Below are positions 34,730 through 40,808 of a stretch of DNA of 40,808 nt, piece by piece. Under the pieces are notes generated by a model. That model made no database searches. It was not told the origin of the DNA and saw only the letters and a program-made list of their open reading frames with translations. Position 1 is the first letter of the stretch; each line of letters starts with the position of its first letter. Location of the stretch: contig CAJZJP010000001.1 in assembly GCA_916050095.1 (NCBI GenBank), forward strand, positions 1 through 40,808. The letters are read 5' to 3'. The position numbers were made by a program, and so were the translations under genes. This DNA comes from an uncultured Atopobium sp. (GTDB lineage: Bacteria > Actinomycetota > Coriobacteriia > Coriobacteriales > Atopobiaceae).

Positions 34730-35941
34730 TTAGGCGCTTGCTCCAGAGATTGCATCAACGCTTGAGTTTGATCCATCTACATTACCACTTGGTGCTCCTG
34801 TAGGAGGCATGGGCATTCCAGTACCGCCGACAAGGCGCTGACCTGTGGTTTGCAGATACCAATCAAGCCATGGCTTGAAGTTGAAGACAATCTCGTTGAT
34901 GCCTGCATACGAACCATCGGGATAGTACATTGCCTGGTAGTTGTGGGTGTTGATGATGTCGGCTGGTGTACCTGGGACAATGGTGCGTACGTATTCTTTG
35001 TCGCCGTTGCGAAGCACGCCGATGACAAACTCAACGTTTTTCATACGACCCTCGGGAAGAGAGCTGTGAACTGTGGAAAGACGGTCACCCGACTGCTCAG
35101 GAACGCGTTTTGCCAGCATAGTGTCTGGGTTGTCATGAGCGTTGTTGTAGTAAAGGAACTGGTTGTTGTCGTCCGCGTAAGTTAGCTCAAATGGCATTGC
35201 CTTCAGGAACATGTCAATCTGGTTGACCGTCAAAATGCCGTGGTCAAGCTTAACGTATGTGTCGCCCGAAACCGCGCCCACAAGCTCGGCGGCCTTCTCG
35301 ACCCAATCAGGATCGTCGGGATCAATGCCCTGGATAGTGGTGGAAATTGAGTTGGTTACGTCCAGATCCTCTGGCGCGATTGGCTTTGGCTTCTTCAACT
35401 TGGAGACCACCTCTACGTATTTAACAAAGTTATTCAAGCAAAAGCCCAGGAAGCTAACAGTGCGCTCGTCGATAATGTTGCCATCTTCATCAAAAGCCTG
35501 TTTAGCCTTTCCAAGAAGAAACTCGTTACCAGGCAAGACGTATGCGTTTACGCCTGGAGCATCTAAAATCTTGCGTAAATGAACTTGTGCGCGAGAAGTT
35601 CCTTGGTCGTAGTAAGAAGCTCCGACGATCATGACAGGCTTGTCCTCAAATGGATGTACATCGTAAGAAAGCCATTCGATAACGCTTTTCAGCGCAGGTG
35701 AGATGGTATGGTTGTGTTCCGGTGTAGAAATAATGACGCCGTCAGCGCGGGTAATCTTGTTGTACAGCAGGCGGAGCTGGAAATTTTCATCCCACTTAAG
35801 GTCCTGGTTGAACAGAGGGATGTTGTCGATCTCAAGGATCTCAAGCTCAAACTGCTTGGCAAAGTGCTTTTTGATGAAGTGCAGAAGCTTTCGGTTATAG
35901 GAAATCTCCGCATTTGAACCGACGATTCCGACAAATTTCAT
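34730..35941 (-). CDS. NAD(P)H-dependent FMN reductase fused to a PAS-like domain and a C-terminal flavinylation-motif tail
   Basis: GIVGSN, STPEHNHTI, LKSVIEWLS, GTSRAQ; PAS-type segment LTVNQIDMFLKAMPFELTYADDNNQFLYYN; ends VDAISGASA. Confidence 0.88.
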   Translation of the reverse strand: MKFVGIVGSNAEISYNRKLLHFIKKHFAKQFELEILEIDNIPLFNQDLKWDENFQLRLLYNKITRADGVIISTPEHNHTISPALKSVIEWLSYDVHPFEDKPVMIVGASYYDQGTSRAQVHLRKILDAPGVNAYVLPGNEFLLGKAKQAFDEDGNIIDERTVSFLGFCLNNFVKYVEVVSKLKKPKPIAPEDLDVTNSISTTIQGIDPDDPDWVEKAAELVGAVSGDTYVKLDHGILTVNQIDMFLKAMPFELTYADDNNQFLYYNNAHDNPDTMLAKRVPEQSGDRLSTVHSSLPEGRMKNVEFVIGVLRNGDKEYVRTIVPGTPADIINTHNYQAMYYPDGSYAGINEIVFNFKPWLDWYLQTTGQRLVGGTGMPMPPTGAPSGNVDGSNSSVDAISGASA

Positions 35942-35961
35942 AGTGGTAGTTCCTTCCAGGC

Positions 35962-36570
35962 CTACAGGTTTTCCCAGTCAAAGTTCTCGGCCTCTTTGCG
36001 GAGAAGTTCGCGCGATGCGGCCATTTTTTCGTTGAGTTTCACAAACAGACGGAAATCGTCAAAGAGCAGGTCAAGCTTCTTGACGGTAGCCTTGTCCTTT
36101 AAGCTGCCCTTCTCGTCAAATGCCTGTTGGGCGCGACCAAGAAGGAACTCGGAGCCTGGCATGATTGCTGCTTTGAGCTCGGGAGCATCCAGAATTTGGC
36201 GGAGCTGAAGCTGCGCGCGAGAAGATCCGAGTGTGCCCAGGGACGCGCCGACAATCATGACTGGCTTGTTGACCATAGGGAAGATGCCGTAGGACAGCCA
36301 AGCAAGCGCATTTTGCAGCACGGCTGGAATGGAGTGGTCGTACTCTGGAGTTGCGATGATGACGCCGTCGGCGGCCTCAATTTTCTTTGCAAGCTCTGAG
36401 ACAACCTCGGGAACCTTCATCTTTTGAGGCTTGTTGAACAGGGGAATGTTGTCGATTTCCACCAGTTCAATGGTGGCCTTGTCGGCAAAATGCTTCTGCA
36501 TAAACTGCAGGAGTCTTCGGTTATTTGACTCTTTTGAATTGGTGCCAATAAGGCCAACAAAGTTAAGCAT
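35962..36570 (-). CDS. NAD(P)H-dependent FMN reductase (flavodoxin-like)
   Basis: GLIGTNS, ATPEYDHSIPAVL, GTLGSSRAQLQLRQIL; ATG 36570 after AAAGGAAG. Confidence 0.9.
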   Translation of the reverse strand: MLNFVGLIGTNSKESNNRRLLQFMQKHFADKATIELVEIDNIPLFNKPQKMKVPEVVSELAKKIEAADGVIIATPEYDHSIPAVLQNALAWLSYGIFPMVNKPVMIVGASLGTLGSSRAQLQLRQILDAPELKAAIMPGSEFLLGRAQQAFDEKGSLKDKATVKKLDLLFDDFRLFVKLNEKMAASRELLRKEAENFDWENL

Positions 36571-36587
36571 CAAACTTCCTTTCTGAA

Positions 36588-37550
36588 TTACGCAAGGAAC
36601 TCAGGCGAGATCCCCGACGAATAATATACGCGATTATCAGTGGTTACTATGAGTGTCTCGATACCTTTTTCTTGTTCCACGCGGGCAAGGAGCTGACGGG
36701 GTTTCTCGCCATAAAGGCGTGTGGTCCAAATTTCTCCGTCAAGCGAGTTATCCGAGATAATCGTGATGCTTGCAAGTTGCGTTTCAACCGGATAGCCGGT
36801 CTTGCGGTCAAGAATGTGGTGGTAGGTACGCCCCTTTACCTGCAGTTTCCTTTCGTAGGTGCCGGAGGTCACCACGGACTGGTTGCAAATAGGCAGCACA
36901 GCAAGGTTGGTGCCTCGTGGTTGTCGCGGATCCTGGATGCCAATCTGCCACGGTCTGTCCGCGAGCACATTGTCGCCAATTGTCTTTATGTTACCGCCAA
37001 GGTTGATAAGTGCGGAATCAACGTGCTGACTTTTCAGATAATCTGCAATTTTGTCGGCAATGTAGCCTTTGGCCAAGCACCCCAGGTCCAGCTTCATGCC
37101 CTCTTTGGCGAGAAACACGGTGCAGCTCAGAGGATCCAATTCAATGAATTGTGGATCAGTAAGCGACAGCGCGTGCGTGACCTCGGCGTTATTTGGAATG
37201 CGAGCGTCAGAAAAGCCGATTCGCCAGGTTTGTACCAAAGGGCCAAGTGCAATGTTTAAATAACTTGCAGGTATAAGGCTTTGTTCTTTGCCAATCTGAA
37301 TGAGCTCAAACAGCTCGGGGTCAACGGGGACAGGATGTTTGCCTGCTGCATGATTGACCTGCATAAGCTCGGAATTGGCGTCATTTGCACTAAACCGCTG
37401 GTTATAGATGTTAAGGAGTTCAAAGACATCGTCAAGTAGCTGTTCTGCAGTGTACTCTTCCTGCGAATCATTGGAGGGTGGCAATAAAGAAATGGTGATA
37501 GTCGCGCCCATCAGGTGAGTTGATCTGGAAATGTAGGCTCGTTCTGGCAC
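36588..37550 (-). CDS. apbE: FAD:protein FMN transferase, cytoplasmic type (no signal peptide or lipobox)
   Basis: LMGATI, FSANDANSEL, LDLGCLAKGYIAD, INLGGN, WQIGIQDP, VVTSGTYER, YHHILDRKTGYP; GTG start after AGGAG. Confidence 0.93.
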   Translation of the reverse strand: MPERAYISRSTHLMGATITISLLPPSNDSQEEYTAEQLLDDVFELLNIYNQRFSANDANSELMQVNHAAGKHPVPVDPELFELIQIGKEQSLIPASYLNIALGPLVQTWRIGFSDARIPNNAEVTHALSLTDPQFIELDPLSCTVFLAKEGMKLDLGCLAKGYIADKIADYLKSQHVDSALINLGGNIKTIGDNVLADRPWQIGIQDPRQPRGTNLAVLPICNQSVVTSGTYERKLQVKGRTYHHILDRKTGYPVETQLASITIISDNSLDGEIWTTRLYGEKPRQLLARVEQEKGIETLIVTTDNRVYYSSGISPEFLA

Positions 37551-37736
37551 GACTCTCCTATAGTGTCTAACAGCAGTTTGTTTAATTTTATCTGCAGATT
37601 GCTTAGCAGTAACTCTATTTTACGTTTGTTTATTACGATCATTTGTTGTATCCACAACATTTTGGCGAGAAACCCTACGGTTTTGGCAGCTCGCTGAAGA
37701 CCACCTCTGAAATCAAAGCTCAGATGTCCTTAAACT

Positions 37737-37822
37737 CAAAGTGAAGACCGCTCTCAGCCCCAAAAGTGAAGACCGCTCTCAGCCCCAAAAGTGAAGACCG
37801 CTCCCAGCCTCAAAAGTGAAGA
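37737..37822. repeat. 25-bp tandem repeat, about 3.3 copies (VNTR-like)
   Basis: GTGAAGACCGCTCTCAGCCCCAAAA at 37741 and 37766, variant at 37791, partial at 37816; degenerate TGAAGACCAC at 37695. Confidence 0.92.
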
Positions 37823-38223: not shown

Positions 38224-40808
38224 ATGAGCAACTTTAAGAAGTCGTTTGCAACTATGTTTGCAGCAATAATGATGCTCACCGGTATCATTATTTTAGGTAC
38301 AAGCACTGTTGCAAAGGCAGTGACCTATCCGTTAACACAAAACATTGATTTTGGCGCTGACGGAGAGCTTACTGTTAACCTTAAGCCCACTTCACCCACA
38401 ACCGTTAAGGGCAATGCAAACATCTCTACAGGTATCGAGATTGACGCAACTGGCCTTCATAAGCCAATCGACGGTCTTTACCTGGAGATTGAGGTAAACA
38501 CCAAGCAGTCCTCTACGGATATCAACAATACCAACAACATTACTCCTGATACCTACCTTGATAACTTTGCTACTCCAGCAGCAGCTACACAGCCTATTGT
38601 CAAGCGCGAGGAGACCATCGTTACCCCTGATGGTAGGACCATTAAGCGCCTGTACCTCAATACTATCGATACCACCGTTAAGCTGGAGCTCCCTTACGTT
38701 ATGAGCTTCAGAGACATGGTTACCCCAGCAGATTTCCAGCTCAAGCCAGTTGTTCGTGTGTACAATGCGGACGGCACCGAGCTTGCTAACATGCCAGATC
38801 AGACCTATTCCATCACTTACGACAAACCTTGGCTCATGAAGCAGGTTGCAGGTGAAGAAACCAACGACCAGCTCCTGTACGGTGGTATTAACGCCCCAGG
38901 TGATTCGTCCGCGCTTTCCAACGATAAAACTGCAGACGTCATCTTCAGCTTTAGGCTTTACCAGTACTATCGTGCTTATCGCTCCATCATCATCACCGAT
39001 ACCCTTCCTACGTACGTAAATGCAGCAGGTCAAACCGTTACCGCTCACTTTGACCCAGCTAAGAACCCTAACTGGACACTCGGCCCAGATGGACGTACCG
39101 TAACCCTCAAATTTGATATTCCTGCAGGAACCACCGTTCTCAATGACTACATCAGAGATAACCTTCCTGGATATTCCCAGCTCAAGCTTTCTTTCCCAGG
39201 CGCTCGCTACCTCGATGGCACTAATCGCGTAATCTTCAACAACACAGCTACTCTTCAGGGCATCCCTTACAACCCAAGTGCAGCAGAAGAGACCGTGGGT
39301 CAGGTTCCTGGCAACGAGCACAACTTTGATGACGACTCTAAACAGTTCCGTCTTGCTGGTAATGATTTCAGCGGCAACGGTATGCTCAGCAAGCGCGGTC
39401 CCGTTACCATCCAGTACGACAAGAACGGTCTTGCTGTTAAGAAGCTTGATTACACCATCAAGTTGGTCAACAAGCTGGACGCCCCACTCACCGACATCGA
39501 GTTCATCGAGGATGTTGCCAACACCGACAACCGCCTCTTCATGACTGCGCTGACCGGCAACCTTATTGCAGTTGGCCAGCGAGTCGGACTCAACATGGAT
39601 CAAATCGAGGTCCGCGGCTACAAGGCTGACGGCAGCTATGACATCATTCCTACCAAGAAGAACGGTGCAAACTGGCTTTACCGTGCTGACATGAACTCGG
39701 CAAGCCAGCAGCAGCTGCAGTCCTATCTGGACCAGATCAACCAGGGTACGCTTGATCCATCCAATGCTTCCGCTGTGTCTCCTCAGTACAGGAAGATTGG
39801 TATTTACTTCAAGAACGTAACCCTGCAGCCAACCAGCAACATTGATTTCAACATCCAGATGATGTTCATGAATCCATTTGGCGAGGTTTACAGCGATAGG
39901 CCTATCACCAACATTATCAAGGTCAACGCCAACAAAGTTAATACCGACGGTACCAAGACCCCAATGAACTTCTCCGCAAATTGGGATACTCGCTTTACTC
40001 CATTTAGCGAGAAGGTCTGGCTGTCCAAGTCCTCTTGGTACCAGCGCGTTGGTATGCCAAACGAGCGCTTCAGTGCTCGCTTTGGCTTTGCACTGTCAGA
40101 GCTTTCACCTGCTCGTTATTTGAAGAATCCAACCTTCGTCGACCTTCTCCCTGCTGGCGTTTCTTATGACGAGAATACCTCTGTTTCAGTGATTGCTGAC
40201 TCGCTGCAGCCTGAGAAGGTTGAGTACATCAGGAACTACAACGAGACTGGACGCAATGCAATTAAGATTACCCTTCCATCTGGATACGTGTATCAGTATG
40301 GAACCATGGGTTATGAGATTAGGAACCTGGTAATCAACGACGACATCATTCCTTCTAAGGCCGAGAATGACGTTCTGAACAACAATAATGACGTCTACTT
40401 CTACGCCACAAACTGGACTCACGGAACACCAGATGATTTCTCTGGTATGTACAACGCCAGTAACTTTGTCAAGGATGACCTTGACATCAATATGAATGGT
40501 GTCACTGATGAGACTATTCTGAAGGCAACCGCAAAGGTTCTTGGCAACAACGTTGAGAGTATCCAGTCCGACAAGCACATCCGTAGTCTTGAGCCAAACA
40601 TCGCTGGCGGCGGTACATTCTACGGTAGGGCATTTACCTCGGCTACTATCATGACTGACTTTGCTGGCGTCACCGATACCAGCGGACTCTTCCAGTATCG
40701 TCTGAGCATTCGTAACTACTACAACACGCCAATGAATAAGATCCTTATGTACGACGTGTTGCCATATGTGGGCGACGGCAGAAACTCTGCTTTCAGCAAT
40801 ACACTTCA
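38224..40808 (+). CDS. Large secreted/surface adhesin-like protein with Ig-like (CnaB/DUF11-type) domains; 3' end beyond window
   Basis: Hand-translated frame open from ATG 38224 to window end (>=861 codons); signal peptide MSNFKKSFATMFAAIMMLTGIIILGTSTVAKA; recurring IITDTLP / FVDLLPAGV / MYDVLPYVG; absent from ORF track because it has no stop. Confidence 0.88.
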   Translation, partial: MSNFKKSFATMFAAIMMLTGIIILGTSTVAKAVTYPLTQNIDFGADGELTVNLKPTSPTTVKGNANISTGIEIDATGLHKPIDGLYLEIEVNTKQSSTDINNTNNITPDTYLDNFATPAAATQPIVKREETIVTPDGRTIKRLYLNTIDTTVKLELPYVMSFRDMVTPADFQLKPVVRVYNADGTELANMPDQTYSITYDKPWLMKQVAGEETNDQLLYGGINAPGDSSALSNDKTADVIFSFRLYQYYRAYRSIIITDTLPTYVNAAGQTVTAHFDPAKNPNWTLGPDGRTVTLKFDIPAGTTVLNDYIRDNLPGYSQLKLSFPGARYLDGTNRVIFNNTATLQGIPYNPSAAEETVGQVPGNEHNFDDDSKQFRLAGNDFSGNGMLSKRGPVTIQYDKNGLAVKKLDYTIKLVNKLDAPLTDIEFIEDVANTDNRLFMTALTGNLIAVGQRVGLNMDQIEVRGYKADGSYDIIPTKKNGANWLYRADMNSASQQQLQSYLDQINQGTLDPSNASAVSPQYRKIGIYFKNVTLQPTSNIDFNIQMMFMNPFGEVYSDRPITNIIKVNANKVNTDGTKTPMNFSANWDTRFTPFSEKVWLSKSSWYQRVGMPNERFSARFGFALSELSPARYLKNPTFVDLLPAGVSYDENTSVSVIADSLQPEKVEYIRNYNETGRNAIKITLPSGYVYQYGTMGYEIRNLVINDDIIPSKAENDVLNNNNDVYFYATNWTHGTPDDFSGMYNASNFVKDDLDINMNGVTDETILKATAKVLGNNVESIQSDKHIRSLEPNIAGGGTFYGRAFTSATIMTDFAGVTDTSGLFQYRLSIRNYYNTPMNKILMYDVLPYVGDGRNSAFSNTL

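Follow-up and report, generated by a model that had tools for sequence, protein, structure and literature searches.

A minus-strand operon of three tandem genes in an uncultured Atopobium sp. probably encodes a fully cytosolic, horizontally acquired NADH:flavin oxidoreductase system that is self-flavinylating and belongs to the FRedA/FRedB-PAS type of lactic acid bacteria. It lies in the window, by which is meant the whole 40,808-nucleotide stretch that was analysed (assembly GCA_916050095.1, contig CAJZJP010000001.1), and is an unremarkable representative of a known class, the apbE-linked FMN_red proteins with a motif-bearing tail. In the scheme proposed here, an ApbE without export signal would, from FAD, link FMN through a phosphoester to Ser402 of RedB within the motif DAISGAS, a reaction demonstrated for two apbE-linked Lactococcus FMN_red proteins. 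RedA and RedB would pair into a heterodimer, its flavin sites lying where the subunits meet, and oxidise NADH; such a heterodimer is modelled here and was demonstrated for Lactobacillus johnsonii proteins of 42-46% identity. The tethered FMN may act as the captive flavin of the interface site, replacing the free FMN (Km ~20 uM) needed by the untethered L. johnsonii enzyme. The reduced tethered flavin would then be reoxidised by O2, with formation of superoxide or H2O2, or by some other small acceptor. Finally, the PAS_10 domain that lies between reductase and tail might influence how the enzyme assembles or how active it is, much as LjPAS, a separate protein, does in vitro.

Organisation of the operon

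In the open reading frames of the window, apbE (36588..37550, 320 aa), coding for a FAD:protein FMN transferase, is separated by 14 nt from redA (35962..36573, 203 aa), which starts with TTG (a neighbouring ATG would give 202 aa) and encodes an FMN_red protein (Pfam, E 6e-36) devoid of both tail and motif. After a further 20 nt comes redB (34730..35941, 403 aa), the product of which combines an FMN_red domain at residues 1-147 (35501..35941; PF03358, E 1e-34, 119.8 bits) with a PAS_10 domain at residues 242-355 (34877..35218; PF13596, E 9e-20, 71.7 bits, and 75 bits in a second scan) and a tail rich in Pro, Gly and Ser. The preliminary description of this DNA had named a signal-less apbE followed on the same strand by two FMN reductase genes, the second of which runs on through a PAS-like domain and a linker to the end VDAISGASA, and open reading frames, Pfam matches and a lipobox and hydropathy check bear this out. 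An NCBIfam scan of the operon proteins gave reductase matches only below threshold.

In the window the operon, which is chromosomal, has a molybdenum-cofactor gene converging on it on one side and a surface-protein gene diverging from it on the other, and no IS elements were seen in the flanks examined. Of 80 related loci, 75 preserve the order apbE-redA-redB and five are truncated by contig ends, and redA adjoins redB wherever the flank of the locus suffices. Lancefieldella, Streptococcus, Granulicatella and Lactococcus all have it as a three-gene operon.

A disordered tail as probable flavinylation substrate

The AlphaFold2 model of RedB has a mean pLDDT of 87.5 and a pTM of 0.78. Foldseek likens its N-terminal domain to 1rtt, ChrR (3svl) and FerB (3u7r), with TM scores of 0.86-0.89 on the target, and its PAS domain to 2qkp (TM 0.85-0.88), which a sequence search also matches to residues 231-360 (E 2e-8); this solved PAS_10 relative is listed only as an uncharacterised protein. 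Some sources name DUF438 for homologs, and residues 145-403, scanned at E values up to 10, returned PAS_10 alone. The final 31 residues (373-403; 34733..34825) are predicted to be disordered, with pLDDT below 50 at residues 373-398 and 400-403, and the tail is docked nowhere in the model. The linker ...GGTGMPMPPTGAPSGNVDGSNSS leads into the C-terminal VDAISGASA (34733-34759), so that the protein closes with a single ApbE motif, D396-A-I-S-G-A-S402 (34736..34756), at residues 396-402 of 403. Pfam finds in RedB neither FMN_bind (PF04205) nor a FAD_binding_2 catalytic domain. These results support the earlier suggestion that the substrate is a bare disordered tail in place of an FMN_bind domain. 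According to a 2025 review of ApbE, FMN goes on the last Ser or Thr of the motif (PMC12052999), and by this rule the predicted attachment site in RedB is Ser402 (34736-34738), not Ser399.

The pattern D..[ST]GA[ST] has just three occurrences in the 385,810 ORF residues of the genome of the window (1,575 ORFs from six-frame translation, minimum length 100 aa; genome 61.5% complete). One of these is RedB, the only motif-bearing ORF beside apbE; the other two ORFs are on contigs C21 and C53. Among the close homologs listed, 119 of 120 carry the motif within their last 70 residues, once in 35, twice in 76 and three times in 8, and it is present in all 76 complete RedB ORFs from the related loci examined. 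The motif is both conserved and multiplied in apbE-linked homologs, a point that the preliminary description had proposed to check. A single motif is found in all 47 RedB proteins from Atopobiaceae and all six from Granulicatella, and two motifs in 22 streptococcal RedB proteins (21 from Streptococcus and one from a Streptococcaceae isolate) and in that of L. lactis. Across genera, the motif is fixed at the extreme C-terminus while the adjacent linker varies freely. Being rare in the ORFs of the genome and nearly universal in the tails of homologs, the motif in RedB is, from these sequence comparisons, not due to chance.

Some relatives have up to six or seven motifs on a single tail (P0208, P0258). 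Motif tails also occur on FMN_red proteins without PAS (P0142, P0149, P0156, P0189, P0258) and on stand-alone PAS_10 proteins of ~180-260 aa (P0166, P0172, P0197, P0202, P0237, P0267), one of these, at 178 aa, with one motif. Of 401 Lactobacillales genomes sampled, 207 have the PAS-plus-tail part.

An apparently dedicated cytosolic ApbE

The apbE product has a full-length ApbE fold, covering positions 1-265 of the 266 in the Pfam profile (E 4e-75) with its residues 14-300. Its GTG start is the earliest possible in an open frame of 343 codons, and an AGGAG (37555-37559) lies 4 nt upstream. The fold begins at residue 14; no lipobox was found within the first 60 residues, and the earliest cysteine is residue 143. 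These features speak against the possibility raised earlier, that an upstream start might give ApbE a lipoprotein signal. The same holds for operon-linked homologs, in which the LMG(A/T)(T/S)IT strand comes at most 34 residues from the longest possible start, again with no lipobox, in all distinct full-length N-termini from the Lancefieldella, Streptococcus and Granulicatella loci. Against the E. coli-type equivalog PRK10461 of NCBIfam, ApbE scores 120.6 bits and does not reach the cut-off of 498 bits; coupled with the lack of lipobox and signal, this marks it as a member of the ApbE family that is not of the periplasmic lipoprotein type. The maximal Kyte-Doolittle values over 19-residue windows, 0.93 for ApbE, 1.30 for RedA and 1.15 for RedB, point to a membrane segment in none of the three, and a cytosolic location of all three proteins is supported by these sequence features. 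The usual rationale for covalent attachment, preventing the loss of flavin outside the cell, is inapplicable here.

This apbE is the sole one found in the 61.5%-complete genome of the window, and the complete genome of Lancefieldella parvula likewise has a single ApbE, that of the operon. FMN_bind and NqrB/RnfD were looked for in the complete L. parvula genome and none was found. With the sole ApbE and the sole evident substrate in Lancefieldella encoded side by side, the operon ApbE appears to be a dedicated enzyme, and the genus would offer a clean natural system in which to ask what cytosolic flavinylation is for.

A probable RedA-RedB heterodimer

The modelled RedA-RedB complex reaches an ipSAE of 0.70 against 0.00 for the best control; in the benchmark, 58 of 80 solved complexes attained that mark, as did 2 of the 110 mismatched pairs. 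Since the interface is a symmetric one like that of FMN_red proteins, the score may stem from a likeness to solved homodimers. Model runs share no fewer than 91% of their contacts, and the partner's pLDDT is at least 86. On the RedB side, the predicted interface is formed by residues 10-11, 42-47, 76-92 and 117-131, and does not include the tail. Biochemistry of the L. johnsonii homologs established an obligate heterodimer of FRedA and FRedB with two FMN sites (Valladares et al., 2015, PMC4500961). Model and homology together indicate that RedA and RedB probably form a heteromer, as the preliminary description had suspected. RedA shares 42-43% identity with each L. johnsonii FRed protein; over all four RedA and RedB pairings the identities are 41-46%, which does not single out one-to-one orthologs.

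What the tethered flavin may do

In the published reading of the class, the tethered FMN is placed at the reductase's own flavin site, and this is also the role favoured here. The L. johnsonii enzyme supplies the chemistry: FRedA/B accepts NADH only, where the preliminary description had spoken of NAD(P)H, has a Km for FMN of 20 uM and forms 0.56 H2O2 per NADH (PMC4500961). Certain observations count against the favoured scheme. The tail is undocked in the AlphaFold2 model and absent from the predicted interface, and the L. johnsonii enzymes are tail-less and only 42-46% identical. Furthermore, the reading is strained by those relatives whose six or seven motifs exceed the capacity of two interface sites.

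It is unlikely, though worth weighing, that the tail instead works as a swinging arm, its FMN being reduced at the RedA/RedB site and then delivering electrons to a dedicated partner, a protein or domain whose gene lies elsewhere, with the PAS domain as gate. The length and disorder of the RedB tail would suit such a role, as would the tails of relatives with three to seven motifs, which outnumber the interface sites. A precedent is found in some Streptococcaceae, where a RedA-like gene is followed by a paralogous fusion, in frames that are open for up to 822 aa. It joins FMN_red to a stretch like FMN_bind, with D[IL][IL]SGAS at residue 262, and to an FAD domain that, as judged by eye from the sequence, resembles fumarate reductase; here electrons evidently travel from the FMN_red module through a covalent FMN to a terminal reductase. 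However, L. johnsonii FRedA/B reduced no quinone, flavin and O2 being sufficient (PMC4500961), and no fourth gene or acceptor gene is conserved with the operon in the loci of Lancefieldella, Streptococcus, Granulicatella and Lactococcus. Nor do the window neighbours, the convergent molybdenum-cofactor gene and the divergent surface-protein gene, favour a dedicated partner.

PAS domains often bind flavins, and one could envisage the PAS_10 pocket as the docking place of the tethered FMN, with PAS_10 and tail together sensing redox state or oxygen and switching the reductase accordingly, as a new flavinylated module in the stead of FMN_bind. The association of motif tails with PAS_10 in fused and stand-alone proteins, including one of 244 aa with three motifs in L. 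johnsonii, is in keeping with this, as are the induction of LjPAS by aeration and its effect on FRedA/B in vitro (PMC4500961). We nevertheless regard a sensor of this kind as quite improbable, given PAS-less FMN_red proteins with motif tails, among them a 270-aa protein of L. lactis, a tail left free in the AlphaFold2 model, and a solved relative, 2qkp, that is listed only as uncharacterised. That the motif goes unused, with ApbE serving another substrate or just handling flavin and the tail an inert linker remnant, is very hard to credit in spite of the two other ORFs matching the motif, in view of its retention at the C-terminus across genera beside a freely varying linker, the constant adjacency of apbE in related loci, the lack of any other known substrate family found in the complete L. 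parvula genome and the published flavinylation of the class (PMC11334425).

Relation to described systems

The preliminary description knew of no characterisation of the tail, and in this it was wrong. Huang, Meheust, Barquera and Light (2024, mSystems; PMC11334425) described apbE-linked FMN_red proteins with C-terminal extensions bearing one to two motifs, and demonstrated motif-dependent flavinylation of two Lactococcus proteins, the signal being lost in Ser/Thr-to-Ala mutants. Their screen took proteins with FMN_red as best Pfam match and collected five genes on either side; it would include RedB-type proteins, in which FMN_red outscores PAS_10 (119.8 vs 71.7 bits). RedB shares with the class its best match (PF03358), a motif on an unstructured C-terminal extension and a nearby apbE, here two genes upstream on the same strand. 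It differs in its host, an actinobacterium of the Atopobiaceae, whereas the 2024 report mainly concerns Firmicutes, and in the modelling of a RedA-RedB heterodimer where Huang et al. modelled homodimers. The available text of that paper makes no mention of PAS, johnsonii, a second reductase subunit, H2O2 or a cytosolic location of the class. L. lactis has two apbE-linked FMN_red proteins, each beside a signal-less apbE, namely a 403-aa RedB ortholog (74% identical, two motifs) and a 270-aa FMN_red protein without PAS (one motif); the L. lactis protein of Huang et al. could be either, and WP_021723379.1, the accession of Huang et al., is not among the accessions shown for them.

The second relevant body of work concerns the H2O2-forming FRedA/B of lactobacilli (Hertzberger et al., 2014, cited via PMC4500961 and PMC11220326; Valladares et al., 2015, PMC4500961). 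There, too, two adjacent FMN_red paralogs are associated with a PAS_10 module, which in RedB is fused (residues 242-355), and a signal-less ApbE is encoded four genes downstream of FRedA/B. Unlike RedB, the L. johnsonii reductases have no tail, and the PAS protein is separate, its gene being ~100 kb away; a PAS protein fused to the reductase in other lactobacilli was noted in 2015 (PMC4500961). LjPAS slows formation of the active FRedA/B complex in vitro (PMC4500961). In L. johnsonii, H2O2 falls when LJ_0548/0549 is deleted. Within the literature searched the name LjPAS is used only in the 2015 paper, the available text of which is silent on ApbE, on covalently bound flavin and on the C-terminus. 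At 244 aa, the L. johnsonii protein with three motifs has the size of LjPAS, a link made by neither Huang et al. (2024) nor Valladares et al. (2015).

Other flavinylated systems resemble RedB less closely. The NADH:fumarate or acrylate reductases of Klebsiella and Vibrio also pair a signal-less ApbE with a soluble cytoplasmic substrate (PMC12052999 and abstracts), but their motif is in a folded FMN_bind domain beside FAD_binding_2, and RedB has neither. Similarly, in proteins of the NqrC, RnfG and PplA type the motif is inside a folded FMN_bind domain, whereas that of RedB falls in a segment with pLDDT below 50. In the Flavin-tag (Tong et al., cited in PMC12052999), an engineered tag and not a natural protein, the seven-residue motif is enough for ApbE, which makes a bare tail plausible as a natural substrate. 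The available text of Meheust et al. (2021, PMC8238504) does not mention FMN reductase, Streptococcus or cytosolic ApbE, the word cytosolic referring there to electron donors only.

Bringing together two unconnected literatures, on ApbE flavinylation of FMN_red tails and on the FRedA/B-PAS reductase of lactobacilli, raises direct questions: is LjPAS flavinylated, and does loss of apbE alter H2O2 production? We tentatively suggest that PAS_10 with a flavinylated tail may be a widespread cytosolic module, its tethered FMN serving FRedA/B-type reductases as their physiological flavin, and that LjPAS could be an electron carrier or substrate that the signal-less ApbE encoded near FRedA/B flavinylates at three sites. 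If so, the production of LjPAS in E. coli in unflavinylated form would explain its weak effects, and cytosolic ApbE flavinylation would control H2O2 output in lactobacilli, streptococci and, by way of gene transfer, oral Atopobiaceae.

Distribution and likely transfer

Within the Coriobacteriia searched, the operon was found only in the genus of the window (Lancefieldella/Atopobium), and RedB of the window is ~80% identical to streptococcal RedB. This confinement to one genus and the identity with streptococci make horizontal acquisition from lactic acid bacteria likely, and suggest traffic of the operon between phyla in the mouth, likely from Lactobacillales to Lancefieldella, and likewise Granulicatella. 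In the tree, the Atopobiaceae clade is nested among streptococci, on nesting branches with SH-aLRT of 80-92 that are not starred, and the distant outgroup rows are long branches. Naming the donor from this tree was dropped on account of these support values. The pneumococcal three-gene set is presumably SP_1470 to SP_1472, and no literature was found under these locus tags. A look for expression data turned up none for the organism of the window. In Streptococcus agalactiae, the transcript levels of apbE and of its two FMN reductase genes shift in parallel, by -2.09 to -2.12 fold (PMC6224512).

Operon architecture and cytosolic location

The flavinylation module comprises three tightly spaced genes on the minus strand, namely apbE (36588-37550; 320 aa), redA (35962-36573; 203 aa), which begins 14 nt past apbE, and redB (34730-35941; 403 aa), 20 nt past redA. 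ApbE has a full-length Pfam ApbE match (E 4e-75); in NCBIfam it scores 120.6 bits, short of the 498 bits required for the E. coli-type equivalog, and all NCBIfam matches of the three proteins are sub-threshold. RedA matches Pfam FMN_red (E 6e-36), and RedB combines an FMN_red domain (residues 1-147) with a PAS_10 domain (residues 242-355). The C-terminal end of RedB reads ...GGTGMPMPPTGAPSGNVDGSNSSVDAISGASA, as the preliminary description had it.

That description also took ApbE to be signal-less, which inspection and simple hydropathy bear out: the protein has no lipobox, its first Cys is residue 143 and the ApbE fold starts at residue 14. The GTG, which has AGGAG 4 nt upstream, is the earliest possible start of the 343-codon open frame. 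No 19-residue Kyte-Doolittle window exceeds 1.30 in ApbE, RedA or RedB, and operon-linked ApbE homologs from Lancefieldella, Streptococcus and Granulicatella share the same N-terminal build. In six Atopobium loci (L001, L003, L025, L026, L037 and L044) ApbE has 332 aa rather than 320, with a 12-residue insertion shortly after residue 37.

The RedB tail and its motif

AlphaFold2 (56-row alignment) models residues 1-372 of RedB with confidence (mean pLDDT 87.5, pTM 0.78 overall), while residues 373-398 and 400-403 have pLDDT below 50. The motif therefore lies on a predicted disordered tail and not in an FMN_bind fold, in line with the bare tail originally proposed. Foldseek relates the N-terminal domain to 1rtt, ChrR and FerB (TM 0.86-0.89 on target) and the PAS domain to the C-terminal domain of S. 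mutans SMU_1151c (PDB 2qkp; TM 0.85-0.88, with a sequence match too). According to the available text of a 2025 ApbE review, FMN is attached to the last Ser/Thr of the ApbE motif and seven residues suffice for recognition; by this rule the predicted FMN site of RedB is Ser402.

The pattern D..[ST]GA[ST] is rare: the full set of six-frame ORFs of 100 aa or more in the 61.5%-complete genome of the window totals 385,810 residues and contains it three times. The two outside RedB, DSVTGAT at residue 311 of a 572-aa ORF (contig C21, 9791-11509, plus strand) and DTITGAT at residue 5 of a 208-aa ORF (contig C53, 499-1125, minus strand), are probably chance matches. Homolog C-termini, by comparison, preserve and multiply the motif. 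Among the best 120 of 1,414 RedB homologs, 119 carry it within their final 70 residues (35 with one copy, 76 with two and eight with three), and in 108 of these 119 the last copy ends one or two residues from the C-terminus. Every one of the 76 complete RedB ORFs retrieved with the loci carries it: the 47 Atopobiaceae and six Granulicatella proteins have a single copy each, and L. lactis and the 22 streptococcal rows (21 from Streptococcus, one from a Streptococcaceae isolate) have two; the surrounding linker varies freely.

Of 80 related loci, 75 retain the gene order apbE-redA-redB, and contig ends cut the other five. One Streptococcus locus (L062, 5063-5542) gives a partial ApbE match, covering query residues 8-175 only, and its apbE may be broken or interrupted. 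The incomplete genome of the window encodes one ApbE, and no FMN_bind match was found in it. In a complete L. parvula genome the operon ApbE is the only one, and FMN_bind and NqrB/RnfD are absent, so RedB looks like the only evident client of ApbE there.

Relation to characterised flavin reductases

The idea of an ApbE-modified FMN_red tail was right but is already in print, for an enzyme family with known activity. To find FMN_red proteins encoded near apbE, Huang, Meheust, Barquera and Light (2024; PMC11334425) searched GTDB genomes; in the text available they report motif-dependent flavinylation of two such Lactococcus proteins, together with homodimer models that place the motif on an unstructured extension near the conserved flavin site. 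By its own definition, as given there, this class takes in RedB; that text makes no mention of PAS, a second subunit, H2O2 or L. johnsonii. L. lactis encodes two apbE-linked FMN_red proteins, and the one tested may be either: a 403-aa RedB ortholog that has 74% identity, a PAS_10 domain and two motifs and belongs to an apbE-redA-redB operon, or a 270-aa FMN_red protein lacking PAS, with one motif (DADTGAS, residue 225), whose gene directly precedes that of its own signal-less 325-aa ApbE (L146, 635-2424). The genome has three ApbE genes in total, one of them with a lipoprotein-like N-terminus (L144).

A second precedent comes from L. johnsonii, whose reductase is described, in the portion of the paper available (Valladares et al. 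2015; PMC4500961), as an obligate FRedA-FRedB heterodimer that has two FMN sites, accepts only NADH as donor, reduces FMN (Km 20 uM) or FAD but not quinones, and yields 0.56 H2O2 per NADH; a knock-out abolishing H2O2 is cited there (Hertzberger et al. 2014). The same text describes LjPAS, a 28-kDa aeration-induced PAS protein that slows formation of the active complex and is fused to the reductase in other lactobacilli, and makes no mention of ApbE, covalent flavin or the C-terminus. Within the literature searched, the name LjPAS appears in this paper only. The L. johnsonii genome encodes a 244-aa stand-alone PAS_10 protein (L135, 1384-2118) that ends in three motifs (DATTGAT, DTATGAS and DTSSGAS) and agrees with LjPAS in species and size, on which the match rests. 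A second PAS protein of 178 aa (L140, 1492-2028) ends in DAESGAS. The genome has a single ApbE, signal-less and of 308 aa, whose gene shares a strand with the tail-less FRedA/B pair and lies four genes downstream of it. In this locus (L150, 1927-5935) a TetR-like gene precedes the two reductase genes, a further two unrelated genes come next, and the start of apbE overlaps the gene before it by 4 nt. Given the three motifs and the signal-less ApbE near FRedA/B, the LjPAS 'regulator' may in its own right be a flavinylated substrate or carrier, examined in that work in unflavinylated form, a link made in the available text of neither paper.

Proposed mechanism and alternatives

By extension from published relatives, ApbE would flavinylate the RedB tail, and the paired FMN_red paralogs would act as a heterodimer that oxidises NADH, reduces flavin and produces H2O2 in air. 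Complex modelling adds support to a RedA/RedB heterodimer: ipSAE is 0.70 against 0.00 for the best control, a mark reached by 58 of 80 solved complexes and two of 110 mismatched pairs. The predicted interface is symmetric (RedB residues 76-92 and 117-131; RedA 78-94 and 119-133), and the score may reflect a resemblance to solved FMN_red homodimers. Between runs, no less than 91% of contacts agree, and partner pLDDT is at least 86. The tethered FMN would then be a captive flavin for the interface site, in place of the free FMN required in micromolar amounts by the untethered enzyme. Once reduced, it would pass its electrons to O2 or a small acceptor, and the PAS domain would tune assembly or activity.

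Other readings, in which the tail FMN is a swinging arm to a separate acceptor or docks in the PAS_10 pocket, are kept alive by relatives of different build. Some Streptococcaceae (L118, 1471-3585; also L117, L121 and L133) have a RedA-like gene and, after it, an open frame of up to 822 aa (split in two in L121) that joins FMN_red to a stretch resembling FMN_bind, with D[IL][IL]SGAS at residue 262, and to an FAD domain similar to that of fumarate reductase. The product looks like an NADH:enoate reductase of the cytosol that uses FMN_red as its input module, and its putative covalent FMN is clearly a relay. Among wider relatives (3,835 hits at E <=1e-3), 42 of the best 150 50%-identity representatives carry the motif, with up to six or seven copies per tail, and motif tails also occur on stand-alone PAS_10 proteins and on FMN_red proteins that lack PAS. 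The original observation is confirmed and its interpretation supported in part; the operon is of more interest as a pared-down natural setting in which to study the purpose of cytosolic flavinylation.

Distribution and origin

The closest loci are from Atopobium/Lancefieldella (92-99% identity over full-length matches; L. rimae 84%), followed by Streptococcus and Granulicatella (RedB 79-81%, RedA 65-74%, ApbE 52-62%). Among 300 other sampled Coriobacteriia genomes, the PAS-plus-tail part occurs in 10 of the 12 from the window's genus, in none of the 16 from other genera of the family and in none of the 272 from other families. It is present in 207 of 401 sampled Lactobacillales genomes, nearly always in 400-490-aa frames among the matches listed, and 256 of 301 Streptococcaceae genomes have a full-length RedB match (E <=1e-20). 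In a quick maximum-likelihood tree of RedB (46 rows, tails trimmed, limited rows per genus, four distant representatives as outgroup), all 16 rows from Atopobiaceae fall into a single clade (SH-aLRT 100) amid streptococcal rows, on nesting branches with support of only 80-92 and with long outgroup branches. A single acquisition from oral Lactobacillales is likely, and these loci extend the class to a new phylum (Atopobiaceae, Actinomycetota), probably by transfer. Granulicatella RedB (L055, L056 and L057) pairs with S. mitis within the streptococcal part of the tree (SH-aLRT 98), a placement that suggests a second inter-family transfer among oral bacteria.

On one side of the operon lies a convergent cluster of molybdenum-cofactor genes (for MoaA, MoaC, two MoCF_biosynth proteins and a MOSC protein), and on the other a 673-nt spacer and then a divergent large ORF (38224-40806, >861 aa) that runs off the window. 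This ORF has a hydrophobic segment at its N-terminus and no Pfam match at E 1e-4, and may encode a surface protein. Within the spacer, 190-270 bp upstream of the apbE start, lies a 25-bp tandem repeat (37738-37822; 3.4 copies, 96% match). The unit is absent from the Streptococcus and Granulicatella loci and occurs 0, 1 or 2 times in related Atopobium/Lancefieldella loci; its copy number is therefore variable, and it may be a regulatory site.
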